From Candidatus Latescibacterota bacterium (GTDB lineage: Bacteria > Latescibacterota > UBA2968): a stretch of 64,000 nt of DNA. Under the pieces are notes generated by a model, which was not told the DNA's origin, did not search any database, and was given only the letters and a program-made list of their open reading frames with translations. Where the stretch lies: assembly GCA_965204375.1 (NCBI GenBank), contig OZ241986.1, positions 1,728,001 to 1,792,000 of the forward strand. Reading direction: 5' to 3'. The position numbers and the translations under genes were made by a program. Shown piece by piece: positions 17,968-33,695 of this stretch (within the stretch, counting starts at the first letter, position 1; each line of letters starts with the position of its first letter).

Positions 17968-19407
17968 ATGTCAGATTATCGACCCAATATCCTGCTCATC
18001 ATGACCGACCAGCAACGCGGCGACTGCATAGGTCTCGACCCGTGTAGTCCATCGTGTCTGCAAACACCCAACCTGGACTGGATTGCCCGCACAGGTACGC
18101 ACTTTCACCGCGGATACTCCGAATGTCCCAGTTGCATACCCGCTCGCCGCTGCCTGATGACCGGCACAGCACCCGCAGCAAATGGCGTTGTCGGATTCAA
18201 AAGTGCTCAATGGAATCCGCCTCACACCCTCGCCGGCGAACTATCCCGGGCAGGGTACCAAACCGAGATGATCGGCAAACTCCACCTGAACCCCAAACGC
18301 AAGCGCTATGGTTTCGACCACATGCAACTCGCCGACGCCACACGGGGCGACCACAACGACTATGTCGAATGGCTACAGCAATACCACAAACGCAACGAAG
18401 AGCATCCCGGCATGGCCCACGGTATTTCATCCAATGGATGGATTGGTCGCCCACATCACTTGCCCGAAGAACAGATGCACACCTTCTGGTGTATCGACAG
18501 AGCAATGGACTTTCTCCAAAAACGCGATCCCACGGTCCCGTTTTTTCTCAACATATCCCTTATAGACCCCCATCCCCCGCTTACCCCCCCGGCTCTCTAT
18601 TACGACCGCTATATCCAGCGGAACTTGCCCGATCCCGTCATAGGAGACTGGGCGCCCGAATTTGACGGTCCTCAAAAAGGTCTCGACCCCAATGCCTGGC
18701 AAATTTGCCTTGACGAACACGACATGCAATGTTCTCGTGCGGCTTATTACGGCATGATCAACTTTATTGACGACCAGATCGGCCGCCTCATCCAATATAC
18801 CGGTGGTCTCAACAACTGTCTGACCATCTTCACTTCCGACCACGGCGAAATGCTGGGCGACCACAACCTCTTTCGCAAAACCTGGCCCTATGAAGCTTCT
18901 GCCCGAATTCCATTTCTCATACGCGCCCCTAAAAAATGGGGATATCCCGAAGAAATAACTTGCAAAAGCTCCGTCGGCATCCAGGACATCATGCCCACTA
19001 TCCTCGATGCAGCAGGCATCGATATCCCCGATACCTGCACGGGCAAAAGCCTCCTGCCCATCATGCAAGGCGATACCGATCGCGTCCGCGAATTTCTACA
19101 CGGAGAACACGCAGGCTGTTATGCCTACGACCACGGCAACCACTATGTCACGGATGGCCACCACAAATACATCTGGTATTCTCAAACGGGTGAAGAACAT
19201 CTTTTCAACCTGGACGAAGACCCCAATGAAATGCGCGACATTACGCGCTATCCCAACTCTGAAATACAACCCTGGCGAAATCGTCTCATCGAATTCCTCA
19301 AAAACCGCCCAGAAGGTTTTACCGATGGCACGCGTTTAATCCCTGGCCAGCCCCACGAAGAACTCCTGCCGGACTACGAACCGGAAGCGACCTACCCGTA
19401 TTTGTGA
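17968..19407 (+). CDS. Cys-type sulfatase
   Basis: PNILLIMTDQQR, CIPAR (CxPxR), GKLH, FTSDHGEMLG. Confidence 0.95.
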   Translation: MSDYRPNILLIMTDQQRGDCIGLDPCSPSCLQTPNLDWIARTGTHFHRGYSECPSCIPARRCLMTGTAPAANGVVGFKSAQWNPPHTLAGELSRAGYQTEMIGKLHLNPKRKRYGFDHMQLADATRGDHNDYVEWLQQYHKRNEEHPGMAHGISSNGWIGRPHHLPEEQMHTFWCIDRAMDFLQKRDPTVPFFLNISLIDPHPPLTPPALYYDRYIQRNLPDPVIGDWAPEFDGPQKGLDPNAWQICLDEHDMQCSRAAYYGMINFIDDQIGRLIQYTGGLNNCLTIFTSDHGEMLGDHNLFRKTWPYEASARIPFLIRAPKKWGYPEEITCKSSVGIQDIMPTILDAAGIDIPDTCTGKSLLPIMQGDTDRVREFLHGEHAGCYAYDHGNHYVTDGHHKYIWYSQTGEEHLFNLDEDPNEMRDITRYPNSEIQPWRNRLIEFLKNRPEGFTDGTRLIPGQPHEELLPDYEPEATYPYL

Positions 19408-19429
19408 GGAATCACCGACCTTTCATCCC

Positions 19430-19458
19430 AACCGCCCGACACAACGGGCGGTTTTTTT
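19430..19458 (+). terminator. Rho-independent terminator
   Basis: AACCGCCCG-acacaa-CGGGCGGTT-TTTTT. Confidence 0.85.
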
Positions 19459-19499
19459 GTGTCTTTTAAAGCAACTTCTGTGCATCTTAACGGTTGAAA

Positions 19500-19591
19500 A
19501 AGAAGTAAGAAGTGAGAAGTCCACCCAACACTACCCCAAAGGCTGGTACTTCATCATACTTCATCCTTTACACTTCATCCTTCACACTTCC
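19500..19591. repeat. Heptamer tandem-repeat element (GAAGT.. / ..ACTTCA inverted arms)
   Basis: gaagtaagaagtgagaagt ... tacttcatcatacttcatcctttacacttcatccttcacacttc; related tract at 45186-45220. Confidence 0.7.
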
Positions 19592-19606
19592 TACCGGAGA
19601 CGCCAA

Positions 19607-21700
19607 ATGATATTGCGAATGCTATTAATTCTCATAATCGTCTCACCAACAGATGTCGTATCGGCAAATATCGATTCTTTGCTCATTGCAGCCTCAGATA
19701 CGACGCGTGCATTTGATGAACGCGAGTCGCTGTTAAAAGAGGCTACAAAAAGCGACCCAGCGGGACGTGCTGCCCACGCGCTGGGTGAATTGTATATGTT
19801 GCAGGGCAAAAGTCATGTACACAGTGCCGAGCGATGGTTGAAAAGGGCGATGCAAAAACAACCCAACAATGGGAATATCTTGACCTCGCTGGCCGAGTAT
19901 TACTGGCGCATCGGGCGGCGAACAACCGCAATCGTATATGCCAAACGGGGGATTGAACGCGATCCCGACAATGTGGGGCCATTGTATTGGGCGGCGCGCT
20001 TTGAGATGTGGAACATGACCCGGTATCTCGATGGCGAGCGCAGAATTGTGAATTATGGTTCGGATTTCAATAGATACAGGAGAACCGTCAGAACATTGAG
20101 TTTGGAAAATTACGGCATTGAAGCGCGCGATGCGGCTATTGGATATTTAACGCTTGCAATTGACAAAGATCCCGACCACTGGCCCTCACACCACTTATTG
20201 GGGCTGGTCTATTACGAAGGTCGAATGGCTCGTGAATTGATTCCCCTATTTGAAAATTATGTGCAACGGCATCCCGACAATGCCCATGCACATTTTTTTG
20301 TTGGATTGGGTTATCAAGCTGAGGATCGATTGCAGGATGCGTATGCATCTTATACCACGGGACTTTCGCGCATGGCAGAAGAAGAACAACGCTTTATGAT
20401 GGGTGTGTTCGTACTCGCCGATCCCGACTCAACTACGCCAGATTACGCGGCCATTCGCAAATTCTGGACGGGACGCGATCCATTGTACTTGACCGAATAC
20501 AACGAGCGATTGCTCGAACACTGTCGGCGCGTGGCTTATGCCAATTTGCGATTTGGCGACCCCCTCAAAGGCATTCCCGGATGGACAACAGATAAAGGCC
20601 AGGTTTATATCCGCTATGGGCATCCAGTATCTCTGGTAGCGAGACCTGCGGAGTTTCACACAGGTGTGGATTTGCCAGGGTATATGCAGGATTATCTGGC
20701 CTGGCGGGCGCGATGGCAGATGATGTCACACAATTACGAGCATCGGAAGGAATTGTGGCGATACGAAGGCTTTACCATCATTTTTGAAAATACGGACACG
20801 CGCGATCACTGGAATTTCCGCCTGGGCTGGTTGGATTCTGAAATGAATCCCCTGGGCTTTAAGATGTTTGTCGAGCGCAACCCAGACCATTTTCGAGACC
20901 CGTACTGGCGCGAGCGGTACAACGCGCCACATCAGATCGCGCAGTTTCGCGGAGAAAACGACAAAGCGCGTATTGAGGTGTATTATGCCCTCGACGCCGA
21001 TGAGGTCGAAACAAAAGACCTCCGCCCCGGAATAAAAAGCGTCAACTTGCGCCAGGGCCTGTTCCTCTTTGATGCGCAATGGGATACGTTGCGTCGGGAT
21101 ATAGGTCGGGTGCAGCGCATGCCCATCGTGAAGTACGACGCACTCGGCCTGGGCTATTTGCTGGCGGGAGATCGGCTCAACTTGAAAGCTGGGCGTTATT
21201 ATCTATCGGCAGAAGTTGAGGATCGAGAAAAAAAATCTGTGGGCACATTTCGAGATACGCTCGATGTAAGACAATTTTCAAAAGAACAACTGGACGTCAG
21301 CGATTTGTTGATCGCACGGCGTATAGTTGAGCGCGAAGACCGCCCCTTTGGTCGCAATCGCTTTCTCATATTGTCAAATCCCTTGCGGCAATATGAGCAC
21401 AACGGTCAAGCCGTGGTGTATTTTGAAATTTACAACTTACAGCGCGATAATTTTGGCGCGACCCATTACAAGCTCACCTTTCAAGTGCGGGCGCTGAGCG
21501 ATGCCGGCGATGTAGAGCAGGCGGATTGGGTAACTGCCGTGTCTTATGAGCAACGCGGCAACAGAGACTGGGAGCCGTTGTTTTTAGCGCTGGCACTGGA
21601 CAAAACCATGCCTGGTCCCAAAGCACTGCGCGTGGTGGTCGAAGATTTTCAAACTCTGGAAACAGCGCGTTCTACAACGCAGTTTCGCGTGATGTGGTAG
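19607..21700 (+). CDS. Secreted TPR + GWxTD-domain protein
   Basis: Signal peptide MILRMLLILIIVS, TPR repeats, FWTGRDP...NE...H..RVAYAN, GWTTDKGQVYIRYG. Confidence 0.88.
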   Translation: MILRMLLILIIVSPTDVVSANIDSLLIAASDTTRAFDERESLLKEATKSDPAGRAAHALGELYMLQGKSHVHSAERWLKRAMQKQPNNGNILTSLAEYYWRIGRRTTAIVYAKRGIERDPDNVGPLYWAARFEMWNMTRYLDGERRIVNYGSDFNRYRRTVRTLSLENYGIEARDAAIGYLTLAIDKDPDHWPSHHLLGLVYYEGRMARELIPLFENYVQRHPDNAHAHFFVGLGYQAEDRLQDAYASYTTGLSRMAEEEQRFMMGVFVLADPDSTTPDYAAIRKFWTGRDPLYLTEYNERLLEHCRRVAYANLRFGDPLKGIPGWTTDKGQVYIRYGHPVSLVARPAEFHTGVDLPGYMQDYLAWRARWQMMSHNYEHRKELWRYEGFTIIFENTDTRDHWNFRLGWLDSEMNPLGFKMFVERNPDHFRDPYWRERYNAPHQIAQFRGENDKARIEVYYALDADEVETKDLRPGIKSVNLRQGLFLFDAQWDTLRRDIGRVQRMPIVKYDALGLGYLLAGDRLNLKAGRYYLSAEVEDREKKSVGTFRDTLDVRQFSKEQLDVSDLLIARRIVEREDRPFGRNRFLILSNPLRQYEHNGQAVVYFEIYNLQRDNFGATHYKLTFQVRALSDAGDVEQADWVTAVSYEQRGNRDWEPLFLALALDKTMPGPKALRVVVEDFQTLETARSTTQFRVMW

Positions 21701-21720
21701 CCAAAACAAGGAGACACAAT

Positions 21721-22683
21721 ATGGGCAAAGCTACGGGTATTCTTTTGGCGTTAGTCGTTTCTGTTGGCGCGGCGGAAAAGCCACAGATGTTGCGTGCCTG
21801 GGCAGAGGATCATTGGGCTGTGGTGACGGTGCGAGAAGTGACCGGAACTATTGTGGTCATCAGCTCGGCCGTGGGGCGAGAAATTGATTTTGATGAGGGC
21901 AATCAATTGGGCGTTTTTCAGGGCGTGACAGAATATACAAAGCACCACAACATACCCACGCTGACACGGCTGGTACCGGGATTTCAGTCTGCTGTATTTC
22001 TCAAATTGGCAGATGATCAATACGGCATCTGTGTCACCTTTCGCGACGAGGCCGGCACGCGCTGTCGGTTGCTACACATCCGAGATACAGAGGAACTGAA
22101 TCGCATTCGAGATTATATCCATCGGATGGCCGTTGTGCATGACGCGCCAAATTATCCATTGGTGACAGATAAAAAAGTGACTTATGAAGTAATATCACCT
22201 GTTTATCGCGCCTATGAACGGTTACAAGTGAAAATGGCACTGGCAAATGGCGAGGAAATAAAAGGTGAACTCTTACCAATGGTGGAATATGGGCAAATGC
22301 TCATCAACACGCCCCTGGGATTTCGACGGATCAAAATAGATGCAATTAATCAGATTCGCATTGCACCGCGCGGAGGCAAAAGGGTCGTAACCAGAACAAT
22401 TCGGAACGGCCTGAAGTACGGCATTTTGGGGGGGCTTACGGGATTACTCGCGGGTTGGTCTTTCGAAGGCTTATCGGCCAAAGACGACATGATTTTTGGC
22501 GCTCTATTGGGCGGAACGGTTGGGGCTTCCGTCGGATTTTTAGATGGATTGCTGTCAATTGAACGCGCCCGAACATTTCGATTTGAACGTGGTGATATCA
22601 ATAACGAGCCGAAGATCCGACTTTTGCCGCAGCAATTAAAGATACCCAAGTCAATGTTTTTTATTCTTTCTTTTTCCATTTGA
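21721..22683 (+). CDS. Exported/membrane hypothetical protein
   Basis: AGGAG RBS, signal peptide, C-terminal glycine-zipper-like helices. Confidence 0.75.
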   Translation: MGKATGILLALVVSVGAAEKPQMLRAWAEDHWAVVTVREVTGTIVVISSAVGREIDFDEGNQLGVFQGVTEYTKHHNIPTLTRLVPGFQSAVFLKLADDQYGICVTFRDEAGTRCRLLHIRDTEELNRIRDYIHRMAVVHDAPNYPLVTDKKVTYEVISPVYRAYERLQVKMALANGEEIKGELLPMVEYGQMLINTPLGFRRIKIDAINQIRIAPRGGKRVVTRTIRNGLKYGILGGLTGLLAGWSFEGLSAKDDMIFGALLGGTVGASVGFLDGLLSIERARTFRFERGDINNEPKIRLLPQQLKIPKSMFFILSFSI

Positions 22684-22782
22684 TTGTAACCCAATCTTCA
22701 CTCGCGCTTAATACGGAAGAAACAATGATACCTTATTTTTTAGCATCATTATTCCGTGTCCCGTTCAGCAAGGAGTTGGGTT

Positions 22783-23631
22783 ATGGTCAACGCCTCATCT
22801 AAACAATCAGATACCAGCCTGGAACACTATCTCAAAGAACTCTCCCATTCTCACCCCATCTCTGCAGCAGAAGAATTTGAACTCGCCGTCAAAATGAAGC
22901 GAGGTGACCTCAAAGCGCGCAATCGCCTGATCAAAGCCAACTTGCGTTTTGTAGTCAATGTAGCCCTGAAATACCGCAATCAAGGCGTAGCCCTGGCCGA
23001 CCTGATCAGCGCCGGCAATATGGGTCTTATCACAGCCACCGAACGCTTTGATGAAACGCGCGGTTTCAAATTTATCTCTTATGCCGTCTGGTGGATTCGC
23101 CAATCTATTCTACAAACGCTCGCCGAACAGGGACGTATGATCCGTTTGCCCATCAACCGTTTGGATCTGCTGCGTCGGATTAAAAATTTCAGCGACCAGT
23201 ATCAATGCAATAAAGGCCACATGCCCACAGAGGCAGAAATCGCCAATGAATTTCAAATCACCGAAGATCAGGTCAGTGATATACTGTCTCACAGCCCGAT
23301 CGTATTTTCTCTGGACAAACCGATTCACGACGAAGATGTAACCCTTATTGATTTGATGCCCGACGAAGGCCAGGTCTCGCCAGATGACGCAATGTTTCAC
23401 AATGCCCTGCGAGATGAAGTCAACGATCTGCTCCATACCCTGGATAATCGCGAAGCCGACGTTATCCGTCTCTATTTCGGCCTCGAAGGCTCCAGTTGGA
23501 CACTTCAGGCCATAGCCAACAAATATAACCTCACGCGCGAGCGCGTGCGCCAAATCAAAGAAAAAGCCCTGCGCAAATTGCGTCACCCTTCTCGGGGGCG
23601 CAAACTCATCACGTATGCAGAAGCGGGATAA
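22783..23631 (+). CDS. RpoD/SigA-family sigma70 factor lacking region 1.1
   Basis: ANLRFVVNVA, DLISAGNMGL, FISYAVWWIRQSI, TRERVRQIKEKAL. Confidence 0.95.
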   Translation: MVNASSKQSDTSLEHYLKELSHSHPISAAEEFELAVKMKRGDLKARNRLIKANLRFVVNVALKYRNQGVALADLISAGNMGLITATERFDETRGFKFISYAVWWIRQSILQTLAEQGRMIRLPINRLDLLRRIKNFSDQYQCNKGHMPTEAEIANEFQITEDQVSDILSHSPIVFSLDKPIHDEDVTLIDLMPDEGQVSPDDAMFHNALRDEVNDLLHTLDNREADVIRLYFGLEGSSWTLQAIANKYNLTRERVRQIKEKALRKLRHPSRGRKLITYAEAG

Positions 23632-23655
23632 TCCTGCTATATCCCATTAAAAATG

Positions 23656-23693
23656 AAAAGCCTCTGAAGACACGCGCTTCAGAGGCTTTTTTA
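23656..23693 (+). terminator. Rho-independent terminator
   Basis: AAAAGCCTCTGAAG-acacgcg-CTTCAGAGGCTTTT-TT. Confidence 0.88.
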
Positions 23694-23782
23694 TTTCACG
23701 CCAAAACTTGATTTGTCTGAAGTTGTTATATACATTGATGTACGTAATCTAAAAGGCAAACCGACACCTCAGGAGGAAAGCA

Positions 23783-24352
23783 ATGGACGTTTTGGAAGCT
23801 ATTCACACACGGCGCACAATTTTTAAGTTTAAACCGGGCGGTGTACCCAAAGATGTGATTGAAAAAATTTATGAAGCCGGTCTTTGGGCGCCCAATCACC
23901 ATTTGACAGAACCGTGGCGATTTGTAGTTCTGGGAGAAGAAACCAAAGAAATACTGGCACAACGCTACAGCGAAATTCAGGAGGATAAAGCGGCTGAAGG
24001 TGCGAGTGATGAGGCCAGGCGAATCTTAAAAGAAGCCGGTTATGCCAAGTTCATGTCAAAGCCCACAATTATTGCAGTGGCGTGTTTGCAAGATGGCGAT
24101 GAAATCAAGAACCGAGAAGATTATGCAGCCGCGTGTTGCGCCATGCAAAATGTACAATTGGCTGCCTGGGCAGAAGGGGTCGGCATGCAGTGGAGCACAG
24201 GGCCGATTACACTGGAAGAAAACACCTATAAATTGTTGGGTGTAGATACCGACGGTGAATACATCATCGGATTTTTCTATACCGGATATCCCGATGAAAT
24301 TCCAGAACCAAGGCGAAAACCCCTCGAAGAAGTGCTGAGCTGGACGGATTGA
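23783..24352 (+). CDS. Nitroreductase family protein (YdjA-like)
   Basis: IHTRRTI, APNHHLTEPWRF, QNVQLAAWAEGVG. Confidence 0.92.
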   Translation: MDVLEAIHTRRTIFKFKPGGVPKDVIEKIYEAGLWAPNHHLTEPWRFVVLGEETKEILAQRYSEIQEDKAAEGASDEARRILKEAGYAKFMSKPTIIAVACLQDGDEIKNREDYAAACCAMQNVQLAAWAEGVGMQWSTGPITLEENTYKLLGVDTDGEYIIGFFYTGYPDEIPEPRRKPLEEVLSWTD

Positions 24353-25167
24353 TTCCACTAACCATGAATGGTTTTGAATTTTTTGTCCTGTATCGCCTCC
24401 CCTATCTCGCATTGCCTTTCTATTTCATCATGTTGGGCGTGCGAATATGGGTGTGGATGCGGTTTTACAATCCAGCACTCAAGCTATTGCCACGAGCCAG
24501 AGGATCTGTATATGGCGTGTGGAAGCAGCAGTACCGCCCAACCATTCATATTTTTCCCGGACCGCGCTCACAAAGTACAGAATGGAAGCGCGCGATCAAA
24601 GGCTTTGTTTTTTTTACCGGTCTCTATAAGCGCGATAAAGTGCTGTGGCTGGGGTCCTGGTCGCTCCATTTGGGGCTGCTCCTGATAATTGTTGCCCATG
24701 TTCGCGTGATTTTGCCGCTCGACCTGGGCCCAATCTGTTTGCACATCGCATTGATTGGCAGTGGATTGATGACTGTGTCGGGTACTTATTTGTTGCTGCG
24801 CAGGATAATCGTTCAGCGCGTGCGAGAGATTACGGACTTTCGGGACTATCTGGCGGAGTTCATCCTCCTGTCTTTTTCTGCGACAGCAATTCTCGTCGTG
24901 TTAGACGGTGGCGTGTCATCCGAAGCCTTGCGCCACTATGTGTCTGGCCTATTGACGGGCACAGCAGCAGTTATTGAAGTACCACACATTTTTGTGTGGC
25001 ACATGCTCGCTGTACAGCTCTTGTTGATTGTGATCCCATTTTCCCATCTATTGCATCTGGGCGGGATTTTTTTGAGCCGCGAATTTCTGGGCACATCCGA
25101 TACATTTGCGGGGGAATTTGGATCAGGATTTTCAGGATTAAAGGATGAACAGGATAAAAAACCATAG
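24349..25167 (+). CDS. NarI/DsrM-like membrane b-type cytochrome
   Basis: Multiple TM helices; His pairs SLHLG...AHVR and WHML...PFSHLLH; LLRRI...VREIT...DY. Confidence 0.8.
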   Translation: MIPLTMNGFEFFVLYRLPYLALPFYFIMLGVRIWVWMRFYNPALKLLPRARGSVYGVWKQQYRPTIHIFPGPRSQSTEWKRAIKGFVFFTGLYKRDKVLWLGSWSLHLGLLLIIVAHVRVILPLDLGPICLHIALIGSGLMTVSGTYLLLRRIIVQRVREITDFRDYLAEFILLSFSATAILVVLDGGVSSEALRHYVSGLLTGTAAVIEVPHIFVWHMLAVQLLLIVIPFSHLLHLGGIFLSREFLGTSDTFAGEFGSGFSGLKDEQDKKP

Positions 25168-25225
25168 AACCAGGATGGAAGGATTAAAGGATGAACAGGA
25201 TAAAAACCACTAACCACTAACCGCT
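25118..25225. repeat. Nonamer-type repeat element with a 27-bp direct repeat
   Basis: aggattaaaggatgaacaggataaaaa at 25134-25160 and 25180-25206; related element in reverse orientation at 46441-46506. Confidence 0.8.
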
Positions 25226-26592
25226 TGAGAATCAGAAAATTGGAAAAGCCAGATAAAACAGAACGAGAAAAAAAATACATTCCATCGGGCCTGGCGGGCA
25301 CATATATGCGACGCATTGCCGAATCGGATCCGTTTGTTCGCGAGATCCAGGATGAACCGTCGGCATTGCGTTTGTACATGGATACGTGTACCAAATGCGG
25401 GGTATGCGCGCAGGAATGTCCGGTGTATTACGGGCAGCCCGATAAGCGTATGCATCCGGTGGAACGCTCTCGGCAAGTGATTCGTTTATACAAAAAGTAC
25501 ACGACATTTTGGGGACGATTTTGGAATGCCATTTTTCCAAAGCCCGATTTTGAAAATAACGATGCCGAGCTATTTGCCGAGCGTATGTACGAGTGTTTGA
25601 CGTGTCGGCGGTGTGCGGCATTTTGTCCTGTGGGAATCGATCATTCGGTGATCTCGCGCGTTGGACGTTCGCTTGTCGATTTAATGGGTTTGACGCCCCC
25701 ATCCCTTGCGCAGGGTACGCACAATTCATTTGAAACGGGCAATTTGGAAGGCGCGTCAGCCGAGGCATTTTTGGATGCGATTCAATTTATCGAAGAAGAA
25801 CTCAAAGAAGAAACAGGACGGGATATTTCAATTCCCTTAGACCGCGAAGGCGCGGAAATTTTCTTTTTACCACCATCGGGTGATGTGCTGGTATATGCTG
25901 AAAATTTAATGGGCATGGCGAAAATTTTTCACGCCATCGGCGCCGATTGGACGATGAGTTCGCGGGCATTTGACGGATCGAATTTCGGATTTACGACCGG
26001 CAATAATTTCTCAATGAAGTACGAGAACAAGCACTATATCGACGCATGCGAAAAATTGGGATGTAAACTCATGGTAATGGGTGAATGCGGGCATGCGTAT
26101 CGGGTGATGAAGTTTATGGCCAGCGAAGGACGCTGGTGGGGTGCATTGCCCTTTGAGATTACCAGTGGGTTTGAATATACGGCACAACTTATTCGCACGG
26201 GCAAACTAAAATTGGACCCCGGCAAAAACCCAGATGTCGTAACCTATCACGACGCCTGCCAATTTGCTGCCGGATGTGGGATTGTTGAAGAACCCAGAGA
26301 AATTTTGAAAGCGGCCTGTGCCGATTACCGCGAAATGCCCGATGGCGGGTACACGCAGTGGTGTTGCGGTGGTGGCGGCGGGTTGTCGGCACTGCGCTCG
26401 GTGCGCGCGTTTCGGATGGAGGTCTCGGGCAAAAAGAAAGCAGAGCAAATGCGCGAGACCGATGCGAAGATCGTATCAACTTCGTGTTTGCAGTGCCGCA
26501 CACAACTCAAAGAAATTGCGCGCCATCACAAAATGCCACTAAAAATTACCGGTGTACACGAAATGATAAACAATGCGATTATACTGGAATAA
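25225..26592 (+). CDS. DsrK/HdrD-like Fe-S CCG-domain oxidoreductase
   Basis: CTKCGVCAQECP, CLTCRRCAAFCP, GECGH, YHDAC...CCGGGGG...SCLQC; start uncertain. Confidence 0.88.
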   Translation: MRIRKLEKPDKTEREKKYIPSGLAGTYMRRIAESDPFVREIQDEPSALRLYMDTCTKCGVCAQECPVYYGQPDKRMHPVERSRQVIRLYKKYTTFWGRFWNAIFPKPDFENNDAELFAERMYECLTCRRCAAFCPVGIDHSVISRVGRSLVDLMGLTPPSLAQGTHNSFETGNLEGASAEAFLDAIQFIEEELKEETGRDISIPLDREGAEIFFLPPSGDVLVYAENLMGMAKIFHAIGADWTMSSRAFDGSNFGFTTGNNFSMKYENKHYIDACEKLGCKLMVMGECGHAYRVMKFMASEGRWWGALPFEITSGFEYTAQLIRTGKLKLDPGKNPDVVTYHDACQFAAGCGIVEEPREILKAACADYREMPDGGYTQWCCGGGGGLSALRSVRAFRMEVSGKKKAEQMRETDAKIVSTSCLQCRTQLKEIARHHKMPLKITGVHEMINNAIILE

Positions 26593-26648
26593 AGGAGAGA
26601 CGTGTAAGGGCCATCCAATCCCCAGCCCCAGTCTCCAGCCCCTTTTTT

Positions 26649-27827
26649 ATGTCTGATTTAATTTATATGGACAACGCGGCGACTACGTTTCCAAAGCCCC
26701 CTGATGTGCTGGAAGACGCGCTGGCATTTTATCGCAAATACGGGGTAAATCCCGGGCGCAGTGGCACAGATCTGGCGCAAGAAGCTGAAGCCATGGTAGC
26801 AGAGACGCGTGCATCGCTCGCGTCGTTTTTTGGTGCTATGGGCACTCCCGACCAGCTTGTGTTTACACACAATGCCTCGGATGCATTGAATATTGCGATT
26901 CAGGGCACGTTGAAATCCGGCGATCACGTAATTACAACGCTTCTGGATCACAATTCGGTTTTGCGCCCGATTTACCATCTCTCAAAATATGAAGGAATTG
27001 AAGCGACTTATGTGAGCTTTGGAACAGATGGCTTTATCGCCCCCGAGGATATTGATAGGGCGATCAGACCAAACACAAAACTTGTCGTGATGACCCATGC
27101 ATCCAATGTACTGGGCACTGTGCAACCCGTAGCAGCGGTGGGCGCAATTTGCCGCGCACGCGGTGTAATTTTCTGTGTTGATGTGGCGCAAACAGCGGGC
27201 ATGTTGCCTATTGATATGGAGGCGATGCGAGCCGATATTCTGTGTTTTACTGGACACAAGTCACTCATGGGACCAACGGGTACTGGTGGGATGTACGTGC
27301 GCGAAGGCGTGACAATTGCACCGTTGCGATACGGTGGGACGGGTGTGCGGTCAGAGTATCCCGATCACCTGAGCGAGTATCCCTGGCGGTTGGAGTGTGG
27401 CACGGGCAATCTGATGGGCATTGCAGGCCTGTTGTACGCGCAGAAATGGATGCAACGCGAAGGCGTGGAAAATATTCATGCACGCGAGATGGCGTTGTTC
27501 AAACAACTCGTCAATGGCCTGCGCGAAGTCGATGGGACCATTTTGTACTGCGCTGAAAATCACGATCAACACGTACCGGTATTGTCGGTTAATATCAAAG
27601 GGATGACGGCAAACAATGTGGGTACATTGCTGGATGTGAAGTTCAATGTGGCAACGCGCACGGGATTGCAATGCGCGCCAAAGGTACATGAAACCCTGGG
27701 CACGAAAGCGATGAAGGGCACTGTGCGACTTTCGCTGGGTCCCTTCAATACCGAAGCGCATATTGAAACTGTGATCGAAGGCCTGAGCGATATATCCAAA
27801 CGACATGGGCGAAGCGGTGATTGCTAA
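26649..27827 (+). CDS. Cysteine desulfurase family protein (class V PLP enzyme)
   Basis: IYMDNAATTFPKP, HNSVLRP, FTGHKSLMGP (PLP Lys), RTGLQCAP (catalytic Cys). Confidence 0.92.
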   Translation: MSDLIYMDNAATTFPKPPDVLEDALAFYRKYGVNPGRSGTDLAQEAEAMVAETRASLASFFGAMGTPDQLVFTHNASDALNIAIQGTLKSGDHVITTLLDHNSVLRPIYHLSKYEGIEATYVSFGTDGFIAPEDIDRAIRPNTKLVVMTHASNVLGTVQPVAAVGAICRARGVIFCVDVAQTAGMLPIDMEAMRADILCFTGHKSLMGPTGTGGMYVREGVTIAPLRYGGTGVRSEYPDHLSEYPWRLECGTGNLMGIAGLLYAQKWMQREGVENIHAREMALFKQLVNGLREVDGTILYCAENHDQHVPVLSVNIKGMTANNVGTLLDVKFNVATRTGLQCAPKVHETLGTKAMKGTVRLSLGPFNTEAHIETVIEGLSDISKRHGRSGDC

Positions 27828-27842
27828 AAGGTCAGGTGCGGA

Positions 27843-28166
27843 ATGGCGTATGAGATTGTGACGCTGGGTGGCAAAGAAATTGAGGTGGATGAAGATGGAT
27901 TTATCCAGCAACCCGAGCTTTGGGACGAAGATGTAGCGCGCGATCTGGCCCAACAAGATGGCATTGAGGAGATGACCGCAGATCACTGGCAGGTAGTATA
28001 TTACATCCGCAATTACTGGTTGAAATTTGAAATCGCCCCATTGATCCGTCGTTTATGCAAAGAGACAGAGAAAGATATCGATACAATTTACGATCTGTTT
28101 ACGGCAGGTCCCGCAGATGGCGCGTGTAAAATCGCGGGCTTGCCAACGCCTACGGGGTGTACGTGA
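27843..28166 (+). CDS. DsrC/TusE-family sulfur carrier with both C-terminal cysteines
   Basis: VDEDGF...W, HWQVVYYIR, LFTAGP, ACKIAGLPTPTGCT (CX10C). Confidence 0.93.
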   Translation: MAYEIVTLGGKEIEVDEDGFIQQPELWDEDVARDLAQQDGIEEMTADHWQVVYYIRNYWLKFEIAPLIRRLCKETEKDIDTIYDLFTAGPADGACKIAGLPTPTGCT

Positions 28167-28172
28167 CCAACT

Positions 28173-29069
28173 CTACCCCGTACGCGCTTGAATATTCGAC
28201 ATATCTTCGATAACCGTGAGCAAACCCGAATGGTCAAGCTCTCCGCGGCCTTTGACCATTGCGGTCTTGAAAAGCTCAAAGACCTCGCTGGTAACGGGCA
28301 ATGGCACACCAAAATCATTGCTCGTTTTCTGGATAATATTGAGATCTTTGTAGTGCAGGCGAATGCGAAAGCCGGGATCAAAATCGCCGTTGACCATGCG
28401 CTCGCCCCTGTTCTCAAGAACCCCACAGCGGGCGAGGCCCCCGCTGAGCACCTGAACGATTTTGATTGGATCAACGCCCGCTTTGGTGCCCATTGTGAGG
28501 GCTTCTGATACGCCGGCAATGGTGACAGCAACGAGAATCTGGTTGCACGCTTTCACGGTTTGCCCCGCACCGAGAGGTCCACACAAAATCGCACTTTGGC
28601 CCATAACGTCAAAGAGCGGTTTGACCGTGTTGAACGTATCTTCATCGCCGCCAACCATAATGGAAAGAGTGGCGTTTTGAGCACCTATGTCACCGCCGCT
28701 GACAGGTGCATCCAGGCTTTTAACGCCTTTTTCCGCAAGCACCTCCCCCACCTGCGTGGTGACACTGGGCGCAATCGTACTCATATCGACGAATGTCAGC
28801 CCCTCATGCGCACCTTCAATAATGCCGCCCTCGCCCAAAGCAACACTTTCAACATCGGGCGAATCGGGCAACATAGTGATAACAATATCGCTTTGTTCCG
28901 CCACCTCTTTGCCAGAGTACGCTTCTATAGCCCCTTTGCCCACGAGTTCATCAACCGCATCTCGATTGCGATTGTGTACGACGAGTTCATATCCAGCATC
29001 TATCAAATGACCGGCCATCGGCTTGCCCATGATCCCGAGACCGATAAACCCAATTTTTGGCTTCGACAT
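28173..29069 (-). CDS. 2-hydroxy-3-oxopropionate reductase / beta-hydroxyacid dehydrogenase
   Basis: GFIGLGIMGKPMA, DAPVSGG, KACNQ, PGFRIRLHYKDL. Confidence 0.93.
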   Translation of the reverse strand: MSKPKIGFIGLGIMGKPMAGHLIDAGYELVVHNRNRDAVDELVGKGAIEAYSGKEVAEQSDIVITMLPDSPDVESVALGEGGIIEGAHEGLTFVDMSTIAPSVTTQVGEVLAEKGVKSLDAPVSGGDIGAQNATLSIMVGGDEDTFNTVKPLFDVMGQSAILCGPLGAGQTVKACNQILVAVTIAGVSEALTMGTKAGVDPIKIVQVLSGGLARCGVLENRGERMVNGDFDPGFRIRLHYKDLNIIQKTSNDFGVPLPVTSEVFELFKTAMVKGRGELDHSGLLTVIEDMSNIQARTG

Positions 29070-29145
29070 ATATTAAATCCCTTTCAATAGATAGTTTGCT
29101 CTTATCCTGCGGTCTGCGATAAATATAATCGCTTTTAAAGATATT

Positions 29146-30069
29146 CTACAACTTCCTCAACTCTGCAAGTGATGGAAAGGCATGGCGCTCCCACACCCGC
29201 ACGATCACCCCATCCACGATATAAGCCAGTCGCGGATAGCCATGCCCCCGGGTCAACCGCTTGAAATCGGCAATAGAAATGGCGGCGATGGCAAAGCGCG
29301 GTTGGAACTGAATTTTGAACTGCATAGTATCGGGATGGTCTTTGGGATATTGGCTCAAAGCAATCAATTTGGGCACCTCTGGATCGGCAGCCCATGCATT
29401 GAGCTTGGGCACGGCGACCTGGCAATAGTGGCAACCTGGACTGAACAACTCAATCAGATAGTCTCCCCGCGTCAAATCGATATCCGCATCCAACAGAGAG
29501 ACACCTTTCAGATAATCACCCACCTGCAGGTCTGAATCGGCTATGCGATCACGCTCGGGCAAATAGCGAAAACCCAGCACCGTTAGAGAAACCAATCCAC
29601 CGACCAGAACCACCCATCGCCCCCATGCCCATAGCGCAACAGACCGCCGGCGCAGACCCCAATAAGAAAAGACCAGCAACCCCAGCATGAGAAAATTTTC
29701 CGCCATCGCCTCACCCGGCGAGCGTTCGACCAGCGTGCCAAAACACCCGCAACTCTCCCCCATCCCCTGTTTCCATGCCTGAGCGGTAATCACAAGAAAA
29801 AAAACCATCATTACCGCACCGATGGGCAAAAAGAGACGCGGCTTCCAATCGACCAGAAGCGCGAGACCCACCAGGCATTCCAGCGGCCCGAGCAACAGAG
29901 CGAACCTGGCGACCGTTTCCACTGTCTCGCGCCCGACAAAAATTTGGGCGGGCGTCACAGCCTCCCAAAAAAAGAGCACGGGATCCCATATCTTAGTTAG
30001 ACCAGCCACCAGAAAAACCACACCCATAATCCGCTGGCTTACCCACAGGCTCTTTTCTAATCCACTCAT
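29146..30069 (-). CDS. DoxX/MauE membrane protein fused to a thioredoxin-like domain
   Basis: FLVAGLTKIWDP, CGCFG, C-terminal CHYC. Confidence 0.82.
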   Translation of the reverse strand: MSGLEKSLWVSQRIMGVVFLVAGLTKIWDPVLFFWEAVTPAQIFVGRETVETVARFALLLGPLECLVGLALLVDWKPRLFLPIGAVMMVFFLVITAQAWKQGMGESCGCFGTLVERSPGEAMAENFLMLGLLVFSYWGLRRRSVALWAWGRWVVLVGGLVSLTVLGFRYLPERDRIADSDLQVGDYLKGVSLLDADIDLTRGDYLIELFSPGCHYCQVAVPKLNAWAADPEVPKLIALSQYPKDHPDTMQFKIQFQPRFAIAAISIADFKRLTRGHGYPRLAYIVDGVIVRVWERHAFPSLAELRKL

Positions 30070-30083
30070 AGATGTTTCCTCTT

Positions 30084-30914
30084 TCAGTTAATAAATAACG
30101 GCTGATCGGATCGCGGTACAATACCCGCTTCTTCCGCACGCGCAAAAAGATCGACCAGTGCAGCCTCACCATCTGCGCCATAATCCAACGTGTAGTCATT
30201 GACGTAGAGATCGATGTGTTGCTGTATCACGGCTTCGTCTATCTCCTGTGCGTGCTGGCGAATGTAATTTTTAACTGCACCAAGATTAGAATGTGCATAC
30301 TCCACACTGGCGCAAAGAGATACATCAATCTGTTGAATTTTTTCTACACCGAGATCGCGTCGGGCGAGAATACCGCCGAGCGGAATGGGATGTCCCGTAG
30401 ATCCCTCCCACCATTCGCCCAGGTCAATGACTTTGTGCAGACCATAATCGGGATAGGTAAATCGCGATTCGTGGATAATCACGCCGGCATCAATATCACC
30501 TTTTTGCGTGGCCTCCATAATCTCGTGAAAAGGCATTGCGACGAGGTTGTCAAGCGCGGGATTAAAGAGACGCAGCAAGAGCGCAGCCGTGGTGAGCTCG
30601 CCTGGAATAGCGATGCGTTTTCCCAACAAATCGCGTGGATCAAGGGAGTCGGACGCGATAACGAGCGGGCCACACCCGCGCCCCAATGCCCCCCCTGAAT
30701 GCAACAGGCAATACCGGTCTCGCATAAATGCAAGCGCGTGGAATGATATTTTGGTCATATCCAATTTACCTGCCATAGCCATGCGATTCAAGGTCTCAAT
30801 ATCTTCGAGAATCTCGCGGCATCTGGGCGCGCCGTCAATTTTCCCGTGAACCAGACCGTAAAAAATATACGTGTCATTGGGACAAGGAGAATAACCGAGA
30901 GAAATGCGAGACAT
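30084..30914 (-). CDS. mqnD: 1,4-dihydroxy-6-naphthoate synthase (futalosine pathway)
   Basis: YSPCPNDTYIF, DIETLN, GRGCGP, IIHESRFTY, HIDLYVN. Confidence 0.94.
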   Translation of the reverse strand: MSRISLGYSPCPNDTYIFYGLVHGKIDGAPRCREILEDIETLNRMAMAGKLDMTKISFHALAFMRDRYCLLHSGGALGRGCGPLVIASDSLDPRDLLGKRIAIPGELTTAALLLRLFNPALDNLVAMPFHEIMEATQKGDIDAGVIIHESRFTYPDYGLHKVIDLGEWWEGSTGHPIPLGGILARRDLGVEKIQQIDVSLCASVEYAHSNLGAVKNYIRQHAQEIDEAVIQQHIDLYVNDYTLDYGADGEAALVDLFARAEEAGIVPRSDQPLFIN

Positions 30915-30927
30915 GGTGAACCTCGTG

Positions 30928-31647
30928 TCATAGGGCCTCAATGAATTTTCGCGCTGCGATTTGCACCCTCTGGACAGCGCGAGGAATATCCCAGGCGTCA
31001 TTGTTGCGATCTTCTACAAGATTACTAATAGCGCGCAATTCGAGAAATGGAACGGCATAAAGCGTGCAGACATGCGCTGCAGCCGCGCCCTCCATGTTTT
31101 CACATATCGCATTGAAACGCGCTGCCAGTTCATTGCCAATATCCACGCGCCCCGTACATTGTTGCACCGAAACAAAAGGACCCTGCACAACGCGTTCACC
31201 CGATTGTTCGAGTATGTGTTGCGCTCTGGCGACAAGCGCGGGATCAATAGGATACACATTGTAATAATCGCGGTTGGTCGATAGGACGGGAATGCCGATC
31301 TCATCGGCAGGCAACCAGCCAGCAGGTGTGATAACACCTAAATCGCCATAATTTTCCTCGGTTGCAAGTGCGAGATCGCCCTTGTCCAGGCCACTGCCGA
31401 GATAAGCACCACCAATGCCGATTTGCAAGACGAGTTCAGGATCGATTTTTTGCAGTGCAACAGTCAGAGCCTGCGCCGTATTGACCGCGCCAATACCCGT
31501 TTCAACCAAAACAACGGGCCTGATGCCAATCATACCGCGAACCCAGGCGCGATGTCCCCTGCGCTGTGTTGTCACCTCTTGAAGGCTATCGCGCAAACGC
31601 TGTTGCTCATAAGCCGTCGCTGTCAGGATGAGCAGAGGATCGGGCAT
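30928..31647 (-). CDS. mqnB: Futalosine hydrolase
   Basis: PNP/MTAN fold, GIGAVN, GIGGAY, ENMEGAAAA, RAISNLVEDR; adjacent to mqnD. Confidence 0.9.
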   Translation of the reverse strand: MPDPLLILTATAYEQQRLRDSLQEVTTQRRGHRAWVRGMIGIRPVVLVETGIGAVNTAQALTVALQKIDPELVLQIGIGGAYLGSGLDKGDLALATEENYGDLGVITPAGWLPADEIGIPVLSTNRDYYNVYPIDPALVARAQHILEQSGERVVQGPFVSVQQCTGRVDIGNELAARFNAICENMEGAAAAHVCTLYAVPFLELRAISNLVEDRNNDAWDIPRAVQRVQIAARKFIEAL

Positions 31648-31657
31648 GGTCGAGCAC

Positions 31658-32677
31658 CTAAAAAGAAAAGGGCATCTTCAGAGGCACGGTTCGCCGTGCA
31701 GATTCATACCATCCCTGAGGTGCGAAATGGTCGGAATGCAAATAGCATTTTACATCTACCTGATCACACCCCTCGGTAAAGGTCAAAACGCGACTCATCG
31801 GCACGTTCTTTTGCCCGTGAAATTTTGAAATCGCAGCGACGTTAATAAATGTCGCGCCCCACTTCTGTTCCACATGCGAACGTCCGCCGGTCGTATCTTC
31901 GGGATTTGTATGCGTGTGTCCACCCAGCCAGATATCACAAACACCGGGATTATCCGCCAGAACGCCTTCAAATTGTCCGCTATCTGGTTTGCCACCCACC
32001 CAGTAGAGATACGAAGCCCCGATAGGCGCGCCATCGTCAAAACGACCGTGATAGCCTTCATCTACCCCCACCCAATCGAGCGAAGCAACCGTCGTCTCTT
32101 TTAACATATGGTGATGCGCGGAAATGATAATTCTATCCCGATTGGAAAGCACCATATCGCGCCACCATTCAAATGTCTCCTGCGTGACTGCACCTGCGGG
32201 ATAACCGCCCCTTTTCCCCCGTCCCACAGGTGGCCCACCGTCATTGCGATCACCCATGCACAAAAACAGGATATTGCCCACCTGAAAAGAATACCGATCC
32301 CACTGCCCGGTTACGGAAAACGGTCGCTGGGCGGCATAAACTCCCGAATATTCGGAGTTCACACCCATCGGATCCACCCACTTTTGAAACCACCACTGAG
32401 TCTCTTCATCGGGACCACTCGCATCGTGATTGCCCACGATATTGTAAAAATGCGATCGCGGATGCTTGGTCGATACACTGTATTGTCGAATCACCTCCTC
32501 GCCTTCTTCATCATCGGGCGGTTCCTGCGCGCCGGATAGATCGCCAATATCGAGCATCACATCCCATTCAAAATCCCGCTCTGCCTGCAAAATGGCTGTT
32601 TCTAAACTCTTTCGCCCCCGCCGCAAATCCGTTCCCACATGTGCATCTCCACCGGCCCAGAGTGTAAATGCGTTCAT
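31658..32677 (-). CDS. Calcineurin-like metallophosphoesterase
   Basis: GDAH, GDL, GNHD, HH, GHTH motifs. Confidence 0.85.
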   Translation of the reverse strand: MNAFTLWAGGDAHVGTDLRRGRKSLETAILQAERDFEWDVMLDIGDLSGAQEPPDDEEGEEVIRQYSVSTKHPRSHFYNIVGNHDASGPDEETQWWFQKWVDPMGVNSEYSGVYAAQRPFSVTGQWDRYSFQVGNILFLCMGDRNDGGPPVGRGKRGGYPAGAVTQETFEWWRDMVLSNRDRIIISAHHHMLKETTVASLDWVGVDEGYHGRFDDGAPIGASYLYWVGGKPDSGQFEGVLADNPGVCDIWLGGHTHTNPEDTTGGRSHVEQKWGATFINVAAISKFHGQKNVPMSRVLTFTEGCDQVDVKCYLHSDHFAPQGWYESARRTVPLKMPFSF

Positions 32678-33549
32678 TGCGCCCCCCGCCAACCGATATC
32701 AATACTCGTGTACCCATCGGTATATCGCTTCAAATGGTCCGGTATATTTTTCAAAAACCACTGGCCTGATTCCGGTATCTCCCACGGAATATCGATCCTG
32801 TGATTGCGATCTCTAAACCCAATCGCGCACGAAAGGCGCGTATCCTTCAACCGGTTGGGAAATGCCCCGTGGTACGTGCGGTGGGCAAACACAATCATAT
32901 CTCCCCCATTTGTGAACAGAGGCACCAACCCCGGAATATCAAACCCCGCGTAGCGATGTTCTTCCTCACCTTCGGGATAAAACGAGCGTCGATCTGTCGT
33001 CAGCTTAAATCCTTCGGGACCATCCCATCCCTCCACATGGGAATCTTCGATCACGCACAGACCGCCGTGAACCGGGCGCGATCCCGTCAGATAAAACCAC
33101 TTGCCCGACGGCCAGAGTCCGCGATTCAACACATCGCCCGAGTTCAAAATTTTATCGGAATAGCCACACCAATCGGTATGCCACCCCACGGGCTGAGACC
33201 CCGACATGCGGATAATCGCAGCAGAGCGATGGACGGTCATATCATTTGTGCCAATCAAATGCCGGTGAATAGCCATGAATGGCTCGTATTCCAAAAGCTC
33301 CCATGCACCTGGTCCAGATTCGATCCACGCATGTCGCGTACGACTCTGCCCGCCCGCTAACGTCCCGTCTGGATCTGTGCCGTCAAACACTGCCTGCTTG
33401 AGCTTTTCGACAATCTCATCCGGTAACACATCTTTAATAATCGCAAACCCGTGCGCCTCCAGGCATTCGGACATTGCATCGAGTTCATCTGTAGCAAACT
33501 CATAGCAATAGCCCAAATCGGGCTTTTTAATATGTGAATAGTCTGACAT
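32674..33549 (-). CDS. PhyH-family Fe(II)/2OG dioxygenase
   Basis: WHTD, GGLCVIEDSH, HRTYHGAFPN...R. Confidence 0.87.
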   Translation of the reverse strand: MSDYSHIKKPDLGYCYEFATDELDAMSECLEAHGFAIIKDVLPDEIVEKLKQAVFDGTDPDGTLAGGQSRTRHAWIESGPGAWELLEYEPFMAIHRHLIGTNDMTVHRSAAIIRMSGSQPVGWHTDWCGYSDKILNSGDVLNRGLWPSGKWFYLTGSRPVHGGLCVIEDSHVEGWDGPEGFKLTTDRRSFYPEGEEEHRYAGFDIPGLVPLFTNGGDMIVFAHRTYHGAFPNRLKDTRLSCAIGFRDRNHRIDIPWEIPESGQWFLKNIPDHLKRYTDGYTSIDIGWRGAQ

Positions 33550-33566
33550 TTTTCCCTCCATTGATA

Positions 33567-33695
33567 ATCGCGGATGAAACGGATGGCGCGGATGACGCGG
33601 ATGATTCGGCGGTTTAGCGCGTATTTTGATACAGAACCGCGTTGAGTGAATTAAATTGCATTCATCTGCGTCTATCTGCGTCTATCTGCGGATCA
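33567..33695. repeat. Nonamer/decamer tandem-repeat element with inverted arms
   Basis: cgcggatgaaacggatggcgcggatgacgcggatga ... tctgcgtctatctgcgtctatctgcgga; overlaps the 3' end of the oxidoreductase gene. Confidence 0.7.

Follow-up and report, generated by a model that had tools for sequence, protein, structure and literature searches.

The stretch of DNA analysed here, in the following referred to as the window, comprises 64,000 nucleotides (nt) of the genome of a Candidatus Latescibacterota bacterium, which is complete in one contig of 6.34 Mb (bases 1728001-1792000), and carries a unit of four genes encoding a DsrM-like cytochrome b, a DsrK-like iron-sulfur protein, a predicted cysteine desulfurase and a DsrC protein with two conserved cysteines. 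The composition of this unit suggests an experimentally untested route that would link cysteine sulfur to the quinone pool in one DsrAB-free family of uncultured marine Latescibacterota. According to the reading that we prefer, and to which we assign an about even chance, DsrC receives its sulfur from the desulfurase and is recycled against menaquinone by the DsrMK-like module, without the need of DsrAB. An earlier inspection of the window (the original prediction) had delineated a five-gene operon in this region, and the five plus-strand open reading frames (ORFs) at 23783-24352, 24349-25167, 25225-26592, 26358-27827 and 27843-28166 are all present, as are the predicted motifs, i.e. two 4Fe-4S motifs, ECGH, a CCG domain and CX10C. 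The deduced proteins are a nitroreductase-family flavoprotein of 189 amino acids (aa; PF00881, 96.8 bits), a DsrM-like dihaem cytochrome b of 272 aa with NarI fold (PF02665, 43.8 bits), a DsrK-like iron-sulfur protein of 455 aa (PF02754, 40.6 bits), a class-V pyridoxal phosphate (PLP) enzyme of 392 aa belonging to the EF2568-type family TIGR01977 and a DsrC protein of 107 aa with Cys95 and the penultimate Cys106 (PF04358, 114.5 bits). The start of the fourth ORF was taken as the ATG at 26649, which fits the homologs (gene coordinates 26649-27827), and the spacings across the five genes amount to -4, 57, 56 and 15 nt.

The gene order dsrM-like, dsrK-like, desulfurase and dsrC is kept in every Latescibacterota-type locus that is long enough to show it, namely in L008-L027 and L029, in L146-L148 of genus g5, in L149 and L150 of genera g3 and g4, and in the metagenome locus L065; two loci that are cut short (L064 and L082) contain three of the four genes in the same order. 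As the four genes are adjacent and identically ordered in all sufficient loci, this arrangement is not a matter of chance. Even the most distant genus, g5, retains the unit, with a DsrK-like protein of 74-75% identity, and across the family f1, which consists of the genome of the window (own genome, G000) and 30 others, the DsrK-like proteins share 74-99% identity. The survey of the phylum covered 168 genomes, comprising these 31 and a further 137 from 13 other families. The DsrK-like ortholog was detected in 28 of the 30 other f1 genomes, the desulfurase ortholog (E<=1e-90) in 27 and a PF04358 protein likewise in 27; the 137 genomes elsewhere contain no DsrK-like ortholog apart from two matches of 28-30% identity, no desulfurase ortholog and five PF04358 proteins. 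Both genomes of genus g6, which are 95 and 100% complete, are devoid of the DsrK-like protein, the desulfurase ortholog and DsrC, their best desulfurase matches (30-33% identity) representing housekeeping paralogs, and in the single g2 genome (82% complete) the DsrK-like gene is cut by a contig end. The DsrK-like protein, the desulfurase ortholog and the two-cysteine DsrC are gained or lost together, and in one family only; the desulfurase linkage on which the original prediction was built is kept in every genus with the unit.

Of the five PF04358 genes found outside f1, all but that of G013 were inspected, and these four (G003, G011, G014 and G022) were rejected as further units: they encode single-cysteine proteins of 38-40% identity, which we take to be TusE-type, and stand alone with neither a DsrMK-like nor a desulfurase gene nearby. 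Single-cysteine proteins of this kind, ending for example in KKATYIAGLPKPKSCI, are encoded in families f10 and f5 at L159:9973-10260, L160:9825-10142, L161:8454-8744 and L162:6616-6909.

The nitroreductase gene, by comparison, does not belong to the unit. It overlaps the start of the dsrM-like gene by 4 nt in the genus of the window and adjoins the unit only in g1; in g3 and g4, and in the loci L023, L149 and L150, it is located 1.2-3.1 kb upstream, separated by PhyH, MCP or enolase-type genes. Its ortholog lies on other contigs in g5 and is present in the unit-free genus g6 (70-71% identity), and it was rejected as a member on these grounds. The neighbouring mqn genes and a tartronate-semialdehyde reductase gene were rejected as well, as their adjacency is lost in g5. 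The five-gene operon of the original prediction therefore had to be reduced to a unit of four genes.

The DsrC protein ends in ACKIAGLPTPTGCT and thus contains a C-x10-C pair with the second cysteine in penultimate position; it reaches 110 bits with TIGR03342 (cut-off 53.5) and is the only PF04358 copy in the own genome. In the DiSCo publication, DsrC is recognised by a penultimate cysteine, a second cysteine 11 residues earlier and the motif AGLPKPTG..C, in which a single deviation is tolerated (PMC8477390), and the arm of the DsrC protein described here differs in one position (K to T). All 28 orthologs examined retain both C-x10-C and the arm motif. With the TusE equivalog NF008562 the protein scores only 76.5 bits (cut-off 191), and it has two cysteines where TusE has a single one. 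The best solved relatives are DsrC proteins of sulfite reducers with 77-110 bits (1ji8 with 110.2 bits, 1sau, 2xsj_C and 2v4j_C), and the lowest-scoring solved match is 7syb (35.6 bits), deposited as 'Sulfurtransferase'. Beyond the orthologs (70-98% identity), two-cysteine DsrC proteins of 105 aa from outside the phylum follow with 59-68% identity, ending in GACKVAGLPKPTGCV, and both cysteines occur in 118 of the best 120 matches. Because its nearest relatives are two-cysteine DsrC proteins of 105 aa and the solved DsrC proteins of sulfite reducers, the Latescibacterota DsrC is classified by sequence as a canonical protein of the reductive type. The arm itself reads PADGACKIAGLPTPTGCT, compared with PAKGACKVAGLPKPTGCV in the nearest DsrC outside the phylum: throughout the Latescibacterota orthologs both arm lysines (PAKGAC...LPKPTGCV) are replaced by D and T, and the chain terminates in T where those proteins have V. 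This changed arm may reflect a changed partner.

A canonical DsrC next to DsrMK-like proteins could be the remnant of an ordinary Dsr system serving a DsrAB that is encoded elsewhere, all the more as the closest DsrC relatives and some relatives of the DsrK-like protein lie in dsrAB clusters (L078, L123 and L124). Profile searches of the complete own genome, however, yielded at best 32.2 bits for dsrA (cut-off 392.85) and 37.1 bits for dsrB (cut-off 341.5), and both models match only a two-repeat assimilatory-type sulfite/nitrite reductase of 742 aa (G000:C1:70772-73000). Searches of the same genome by tblastn with DsrA, DsrN, DsrD and DsrP (from L078/L123) found nothing, and DsrB gave one weak match of 25% identity on the 742-aa reductase; the DsrP of L078 had no match in this search, and dsrJ and dsrO were not searched on their own. 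A DsrL or DsrN of the dsr type was not found in the genome either, and dsrA exceeds its cut-off in none of the 31 f1 genomes, 14 of which are single contigs. Around the unit, no match to the dsrAB, dsrEFH or tusBCD families and none to the NrfD-type (DsrP) family was obtained among the 16 ORFs scanned (17968-34693). The 742-aa reductase was also considered as a partner of the unit and rejected, being absent from g5, present in one g6 genome and distributed independently of the unit; a glutamate-synthase-small-subunit-like gene is located near it at 64-65 kb. As far as sequence can show, a dsrAB encoded elsewhere is rejected by the genome profiles, the tblastn searches and the 31 family genomes, which makes the remnant explanation scarcely credible. 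The absence of dsrAB, which the original prediction had stated for the window, thus extends to the whole genome and, with respect to dsrA, to the family. According to one study, the second cysteine of DsrC is 'almost always' replaced where DsrAB is lacking, the exceptions being Methylococcaceae, Marinobacter and Lawsonia (PMC3397948); the two-cysteine DsrC predicted for Latescibacterota adds to these rare exceptions. Seven bacterial assemblies in a basal DsrMK-only clade without DsrAB are mentioned in another study (PMC10504309).

The product of the gene at 26649-27827 is proposed to be a type-II-like cysteine desulfurase and the sulfur donor to DsrC. It scores 297.9 bits with PF00266 and 421.8 bits with TIGR01977 (cut-off 377), whereas with the SclA exception model it stays below the cut-off (331.5 bits, cut-off 525). 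The protein aligns over its full length with SufS-type structures, GHK and RTGLQCAP occupying the positions of the PLP-lysine and the catalytic cysteine; in the best solved relative, 5b7s, RTGLQCAP is aligned with RSGHHCAL. GHK and RTGL[QL]CAP are present without exception in the 29 orthologs, which share 65-94% identity and are followed at 55-58% by the broad TIGR01977 family, for instance from Planctomycetes, Sphingobacteriales and Ignavibacteriae. Since the own genome holds four further class-V enzymes (five in total), the best of which scores 506.9 bits and is encoded at 6.10 Mb, the desulfurase of the unit appears to be an extra, dedicated one. A contact of the desulfurase with DsrC is supported by complex modelling: the model of two desulfurase chains with DsrC obtained a score of 0.63, compared with 0.00 for the best of three controls, agreement between runs extends to at least 72% of the contacts, and the predicted local distance difference test score (pLDDT) of the partner is at least 85. 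The modelled interface would join residues 320-331 and 385-386 of the desulfurase, just before the C342 loop, to residues 67-92 of DsrC at the base of the C-terminal arm. With respect to the original prediction, in which the desulfurase replaces DsrAB as sulfur donor, the pairing of the two proteins is thus backed by the contact model and by the linkage of the genes, the donor function itself staying a proposal.

Such a contact would also suit a biosynthetic relay, in which DsrC acts as a SufE/CsdE/TusE-like carrier to an acceptor, for example in tRNA or cofactor thiolation, and the DsrMK-like proteins only re-reduce the Cys95-Cys106 disulfide. Genuine relay proteins are known from the TusE/DsrC family, and desulfurases of type II depend on a dedicated acceptor; the desulfurase of the unit has a SufS-like loop and the modelled DsrC contact. 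The genome contains mnmA, and neither TusBCD nor a second PF04358 protein. The lack of TusBCD, and of DsrEFH, follows from the presence of only one DsrE-family gene in the genome, which lies 2.1 Mb from the unit beside TusA and a TusA/MetE-like fusion. In the whole-genome check called for by the original prediction, tusBCD was thus absent and mnmA present but unlinked. Several observations nevertheless speak against a relay. The score of DsrC with the TusE equivalog is far below the cut-off, and none of the 28 orthologs has lost CysB; the unit has no linked acceptor gene, and its distance from mnmA is 1.3 Mb; a membrane-bound quinone module would be a costly repair device; and 135 of the 168 genomes are without any PF04358 (TusE/DsrC) match, which indicates that the phylum needs no such protein. 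A relay of this kind is therefore considered rather unlikely. The TusA gene is not linked to the unit, and the TusA-DsrE cluster at 3.86 Mb was rejected as a part of it, being tied to the MetE-like fusion instead. This row of genes on the minus strand (G000:C1:3857627-3859768; L145:232-2373) encodes TusA (84 aa), the DsrE-family protein (120 aa) and a fusion of 501 aa beside a sulfatase; the fusion combines a weakly TusA-like N-terminus with a domain resembling cobalamin-independent methionine synthase, and the row may represent a sulfur-relay-dependent homocysteine or methionine step.

In the membrane module, the four histidines H107, H117, H218 and H236 of the DsrM-like protein are invariant in an alignment of nine sequences including canonical DsrM (A2), and the protein is proposed to be the quinone-interacting membrane anchor. 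The DsrK-like protein consists of a PF13183 ferredoxin domain with two [4Fe-4S] motifs and one full CCG domain (PF02754). All of its cysteines, i.e. the two CxxCxxCxxxCP motifs, C288 (in ECGH), C345, C380-C381, C421 and C424, are invariant in an alignment of 20 sequences (A1), and it is proposed to be the catalytic subunit working on DsrC; a search against the sequences of solved structures returned the CCG part of 9ojn as sole match. A quinone context for the unit is given by MqnD (30084-31001) and MqnB (30928-31647; TIGR03664, 221.8 bits, cut-off 124.7), both of the futalosine pathway. The proximity of these genes, which was mentioned in the original prediction, carries no weight, as the adjacency is lost in g5.

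According to the preferred reading, the PLP enzyme would take the sulfur of L-cysteine as a persulfide on C342 of its loop and hand it on to DsrC at the penultimate Cys106, in the manner of SufS with SufE and of CsdA with CsdE. Cys95 would then resolve the persulfide, releasing sulfide and leaving a Cys95-Cys106 disulfide, or alternatively a trisulfide may be formed on DsrC if two electrons are withdrawn. As in DsrMK and HdrDE, which serve as models for this step, the cytoplasmic DsrK-like protein would act on oxidised DsrC via its CCG-domain cluster, and electrons would be exchanged with menaquinone via the dihaem DsrM-like anchor. In the reductive direction the net reaction would be cysteine + menaquinol -> alanine + H2S + menaquinone, with an electron sink, a controlled supply of sulfide or a sulfur relay as possible physiological uses. 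The quinol-driven release of H2S as an electron sink and the trisulfide chemistry, both put forward in the original prediction, are thus hypothetical. A precedent for the loading step is a study in which E. coli IscS, supplied with cysteine, persulfurated A. vinosum DsrC at its penultimate cysteine in vitro (PMC3397948). Together with this precedent, the direct support for the preferred reading consists of the conserved residues, the linkage and joint distribution of the genes, and the complex model. A more far-reaching version, which we regard as doubtful, is a cysteine-sulfur respiration in bacteria lacking a sulfite reductase, in which the desulfurase-loaded DsrC is reduced with menaquinol by the DsrMK-like proteins across the membrane and cysteine sulfur serves as terminal electron acceptor or as an energy-coupled source of sulfide. 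If this were true, the DsrC/DsrMK half of dissimilatory sulfite reduction would be a free-standing module for which donors beyond DsrAB are possible.

The direction of the electron flow could also be reversed, with the DsrMK-like proteins oxidising a DsrC persulfide to the trisulfide, electrons going to menaquinone and the sulfur going on to a further oxidising enzyme. In favour of such an oxidative role, menaquinone can accept electrons from a thiol or persulfide in a downhill reaction. Moreover, oxidation of persulfurated DsrC by DsrMK(JOP) is stated for sulfur oxidisers in the DiSCo publication (PMC8477390). The genome, on the other hand, encodes no rDsrAB, DsrEFH or dsr-type DsrL or DsrN, the DsrC protein is closest to the reductive-type DsrC of 105 aa, and no downstream enzyme is linked to the unit, so that the oxidative direction appears highly improbable.

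A number of points weigh against the preferred reading, and the first group of them concerns the membrane module. The curated cut-offs of the NCBIfam equivalogs are 300 bits for DsrM (NF038037) and 400 bits for DsrK (NF045796), and the proteins of the window reach 55.3 and 313.3 bits, respectively, the DsrK-like protein also scoring with TmcB (220.6) and HmcF (201.7). For comparison, canonical DsrM and DsrK of L123 obtain 458.3 and 735 bits and archaeal DsrK (L032, L033) 458 bits. Judged by these scores, the module is DsrMK-like and not a DsrMK equivalog. In a tree of 41 DsrK sequences, the Latescibacterota proteins form a clade (100/100) on a long stem (1.14) that is set apart from canonical and archaeal DsrK (100/99) and falls inside a group of paralogs (92/85), its exact position within that group not being fixed; the partial L131 sequence is a long branch of unsure placement. 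An assignment to DsrMK proper was consequently abandoned, with both subunits under the equivalog cut-offs and DsrK in a paralog clade. The identity of the DsrK-like proteins drops straight from 74% to 50-54%, into a very large family whose members bear no other name than '(Fe-S)-binding protein', and the nearest relatives outside Latescibacterota show 43-54%. The unit therefore looks like a mosaic, in which a paralogous module of DsrMK-like type is combined with a canonical DsrC and with a desulfurase of family TIGR01977.

The paralogs keep a different company. Among 76 metagenome loci of the DsrK-like family (within L067-L143), a DsrM-like gene is located directly upstream of the DsrK-like gene in 57, and 42 (37 of the 53 with enough sequence) have a DsrC-like gene ahead of dsrM-like. 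Its product contains Tyr for CysB and an extra cysteine in FPCG, and ends FPCG..GAYRLAGLPRPxGC. A fused double DsrC without terminal cysteine occurs in 27 loci, an HTH_17 gene in 35, and a second DsrK-like gene together with macro-domain and HmcE-like genes in 17; dsrA, dsrB, dsrL or dsrN is found alongside in six. A desulfurase gene lies near the cluster in three loci (L073, L108 and L131), and the identity of these enzymes (39-56%) is not above the general TIGR01977 background of 55-58%. In addition, L123 carries the paralog cluster and a canonical DsrMK with DsrP (an NrfD-type gene) on one contig. With such partners, i.e. another DsrC-like protein, a fused double DsrC, helix-turn-helix (HTH) proteins and a canonical DsrMK beside them, the role of the paralog family may be regulatory. 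The paralogous DsrK-like proteins score 351-365 bits with NF045796, which is also under the cut-off, and the DsrM-like partner 98.8 bits.

These relatives are the basis of a further rival, a quinone-linked thiol/disulfide switch, in which the DsrMK-like proteins adjust the redox state of DsrC to that of the quinone pool, be it for regulation or for the reduction of other targets in the cytoplasm. The presence of the desulfurase gene would then have a separate cause, such as the supply of iron-sulfur clusters to DsrK. In its favour, the nearest DsrMK-like relatives sit with HTH_17 genes (35 of the 76), response-regulator fusions and aberrant DsrC-like proteins, and 73 of the 76 loci are without a desulfurase. 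The unit in Latescibacterota departs from this pattern, as it has no HTH gene, a tblastn search with HTH17 found no match in the own genome, its DsrC is canonical, the desulfurase is always carried and is lost together with the other genes in g6, and the modelled contact is specific in comparison with the three controls. We thus consider the switch improbable.

The typical gene order of the paralog clusters is HTH_17, DsrC-like, DsrM-like, DsrK-like and fused double DsrC, with examples in L078:218-8335, L112, L123:5808-10600, L124:6166-9251 and about 70 further metagenome loci. The second DsrK-like protein is often fused to a response-regulator receiver, and the HmcE-like gene is a membrane gene. 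The L078 DsrK-like sequence is at zero distance from a protein whose source is named by NCBI as a Gemmatimonadales metagenome-assembled genome; other source names in the family are KSB1, Deltaproteobacteria, Pseudomonadota and Elusimicrobia. A literature search found no paper on these clusters.

The remaining points against loading of DsrC by the desulfurase and its recycling by the DsrMK-like module are of a different kind. In the complex model, Cys106 and C342 are outside the confident contacts. The score had been calibrated on 157 solved complexes, of which 116 attained 0.63, and on 215 mismatched pairs, of which 2 did so; the present job, with its own alignments and a dimer, was unlike this calibration. 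The joint counts of DsrK-like, desulfurase and DsrC come from one clade and therefore record a single gain or loss, not several independent ones. With about -75 mV, menaquinol has little reducing power towards persulfide or disulfide couples, a problem that stands in the same way for DsrMK itself, and each step of the mechanism was deduced and does not derive from experiment. Finally, sequences 90-99% like positions 23400-28500 of the window are present in RNA libraries labelled coral or sponge metagenome from several studies, and assembled contigs from four runs cover all five genes at this likeness. Short contigs of run X1 span the nitroreductase/dsrM-like and the dsrK-like/desulfurase junctions, and those of runs X3 and X4 are 12-13 kb long. 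Since these contigs are assembled, are of such length and possibly derive from DNA, they do not serve as evidence that the genes are transcribed or form an operon. The near-identical sequences in coral and sponge libraries suggest an association of members of the family with marine invertebrates.

In general, DsrC and DsrMK are regarded as marker proteins for DsrAB and as its obligate partners, and the action of DsrMK on DsrC is still debated. The unit in Latescibacterota resembles the DsrMK(JOP) system of sulfite and sulfate reducers in its two-cysteine DsrC of the reductive type and in the NarI-fold dihaem subunit encoded side by side with a two-ferredoxin/CCG protein. It differs in lacking DsrAB and having a cysteine desulfurase in its place, in the missing DsrP family match among the 16 ORFs, in DsrM- and DsrK-like proteins that are under the cut-offs and in a separate clade, and in the D and T at the arm lysines. 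As in SufS-SufE/SufU and CsdA-CsdE, an enzyme of SufS-like fold with a short catalytic cysteine loop is followed, 15 nt downstream, by a partner with an arm cysteine that is predicted to dock beside the loop, but the acceptor has the DsrC fold, and a quinone-linked redox module is linked instead of Fe-S scaffold genes. With the DsrMK-like paralog clusters the unit shares its nearest DsrK-like relatives, a common tree group and scores under the NCBIfam cut-off, whereas aberrant DsrC-like proteins and regulators prevail there, a desulfurase is rare (3/76) and dsrA/B/L/N lie beside 6/76. The quinol- or methanophenazine-linked HdrDE and HmeCD combine a b-type cytochrome anchor with a CCG iron-sulfur subunit acting on a disulfide, as in the unit; their substrate is CoM-S-S-CoB, and that of the unit is presumably the protein DsrC. 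In the IscS-TusA-TusBCD-TusE-MnmA relay, a protein of the DsrC/TusE family takes a cysteine-derived persulfide on its penultimate cysteine, as stated in PMC3397948. The same role as acceptor of cysteine sulfur is proposed here for DsrC. The unit differs from this relay in the lack of TusBCD and of a linked TusA, in a TusE score under the cut-off, in the retention of the second cysteine and in its membrane module.

No description of a desulfurase-linked DsrC/DsrMK unit was found in the full-text literature searched, which does not extend to subscription reviews on DsrC, and the accessible parts of PMC10504309, PMC8477390, PMC3397948, PMC7509429 and PMC4846661 describe no such unit. The suggestion that the system is undescribed thus holds for the searchable full texts. 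If loading by the desulfurase is true, cysteine and one soluble enzyme suffice to load DsrC, and the chemistry of the membrane module becomes directly testable in vitro; dsrC and dsrMK matches in metagenomes could then not safely be read as sulfite or sulfate respiration, and marine Latescibacterota with near-identical sequences in coral and sponge libraries may contain an unrecognised source or sink of sulfide.

With respect to the surroundings of the unit, a G+C-rich hairpin with T runs and a 14-pair stem was detected by a terminator scan at 23656-23690, after a sigma-70 gene, and delimits the transcription unit on its upstream side; in all four runs the RNA-library contigs drop to near zero across 23571-23741, which contains the hairpin site. 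Further upstream, at 17968-21700, an arylsulfatase (NF010322, 496.5 bits, over the cut-off) and a TPR/GWxTD protein are encoded. In g5 a DUF3179 gene is located upstream of the dsrM-like gene, and dsrC is followed by a TlpA/AhpC-TSA-type redoxin (WCKPC) with signal peptide and then by a DUF6029 protein (L146:12718-14774 and L147:4387-6470). The TlpA-like redoxin was rejected as a member of the unit, on account of its signal peptide and its location next to DUF6029; the three g5 neighbours probably have unrelated periplasmic functions.

Within the unit, blastn revealed on the plus strand (25120-25212) a dispersed repeat about 40 nt in length, with one copy at 25120-25160 and a second, partial one at 25180-25206, that supplies the final codons of the dsrM-like gene and fills the dsrM-dsrK spacer. 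Relatives have 26 other letters in place of 25130-25261, and the depth of the RNA-library contigs peaks at the repeat. The genome contains 66 blastn matches to this repeat, some of them in short arrays at distances of about 106-112 nt, for instance at about 5.333 Mb and 4.2355 Mb.

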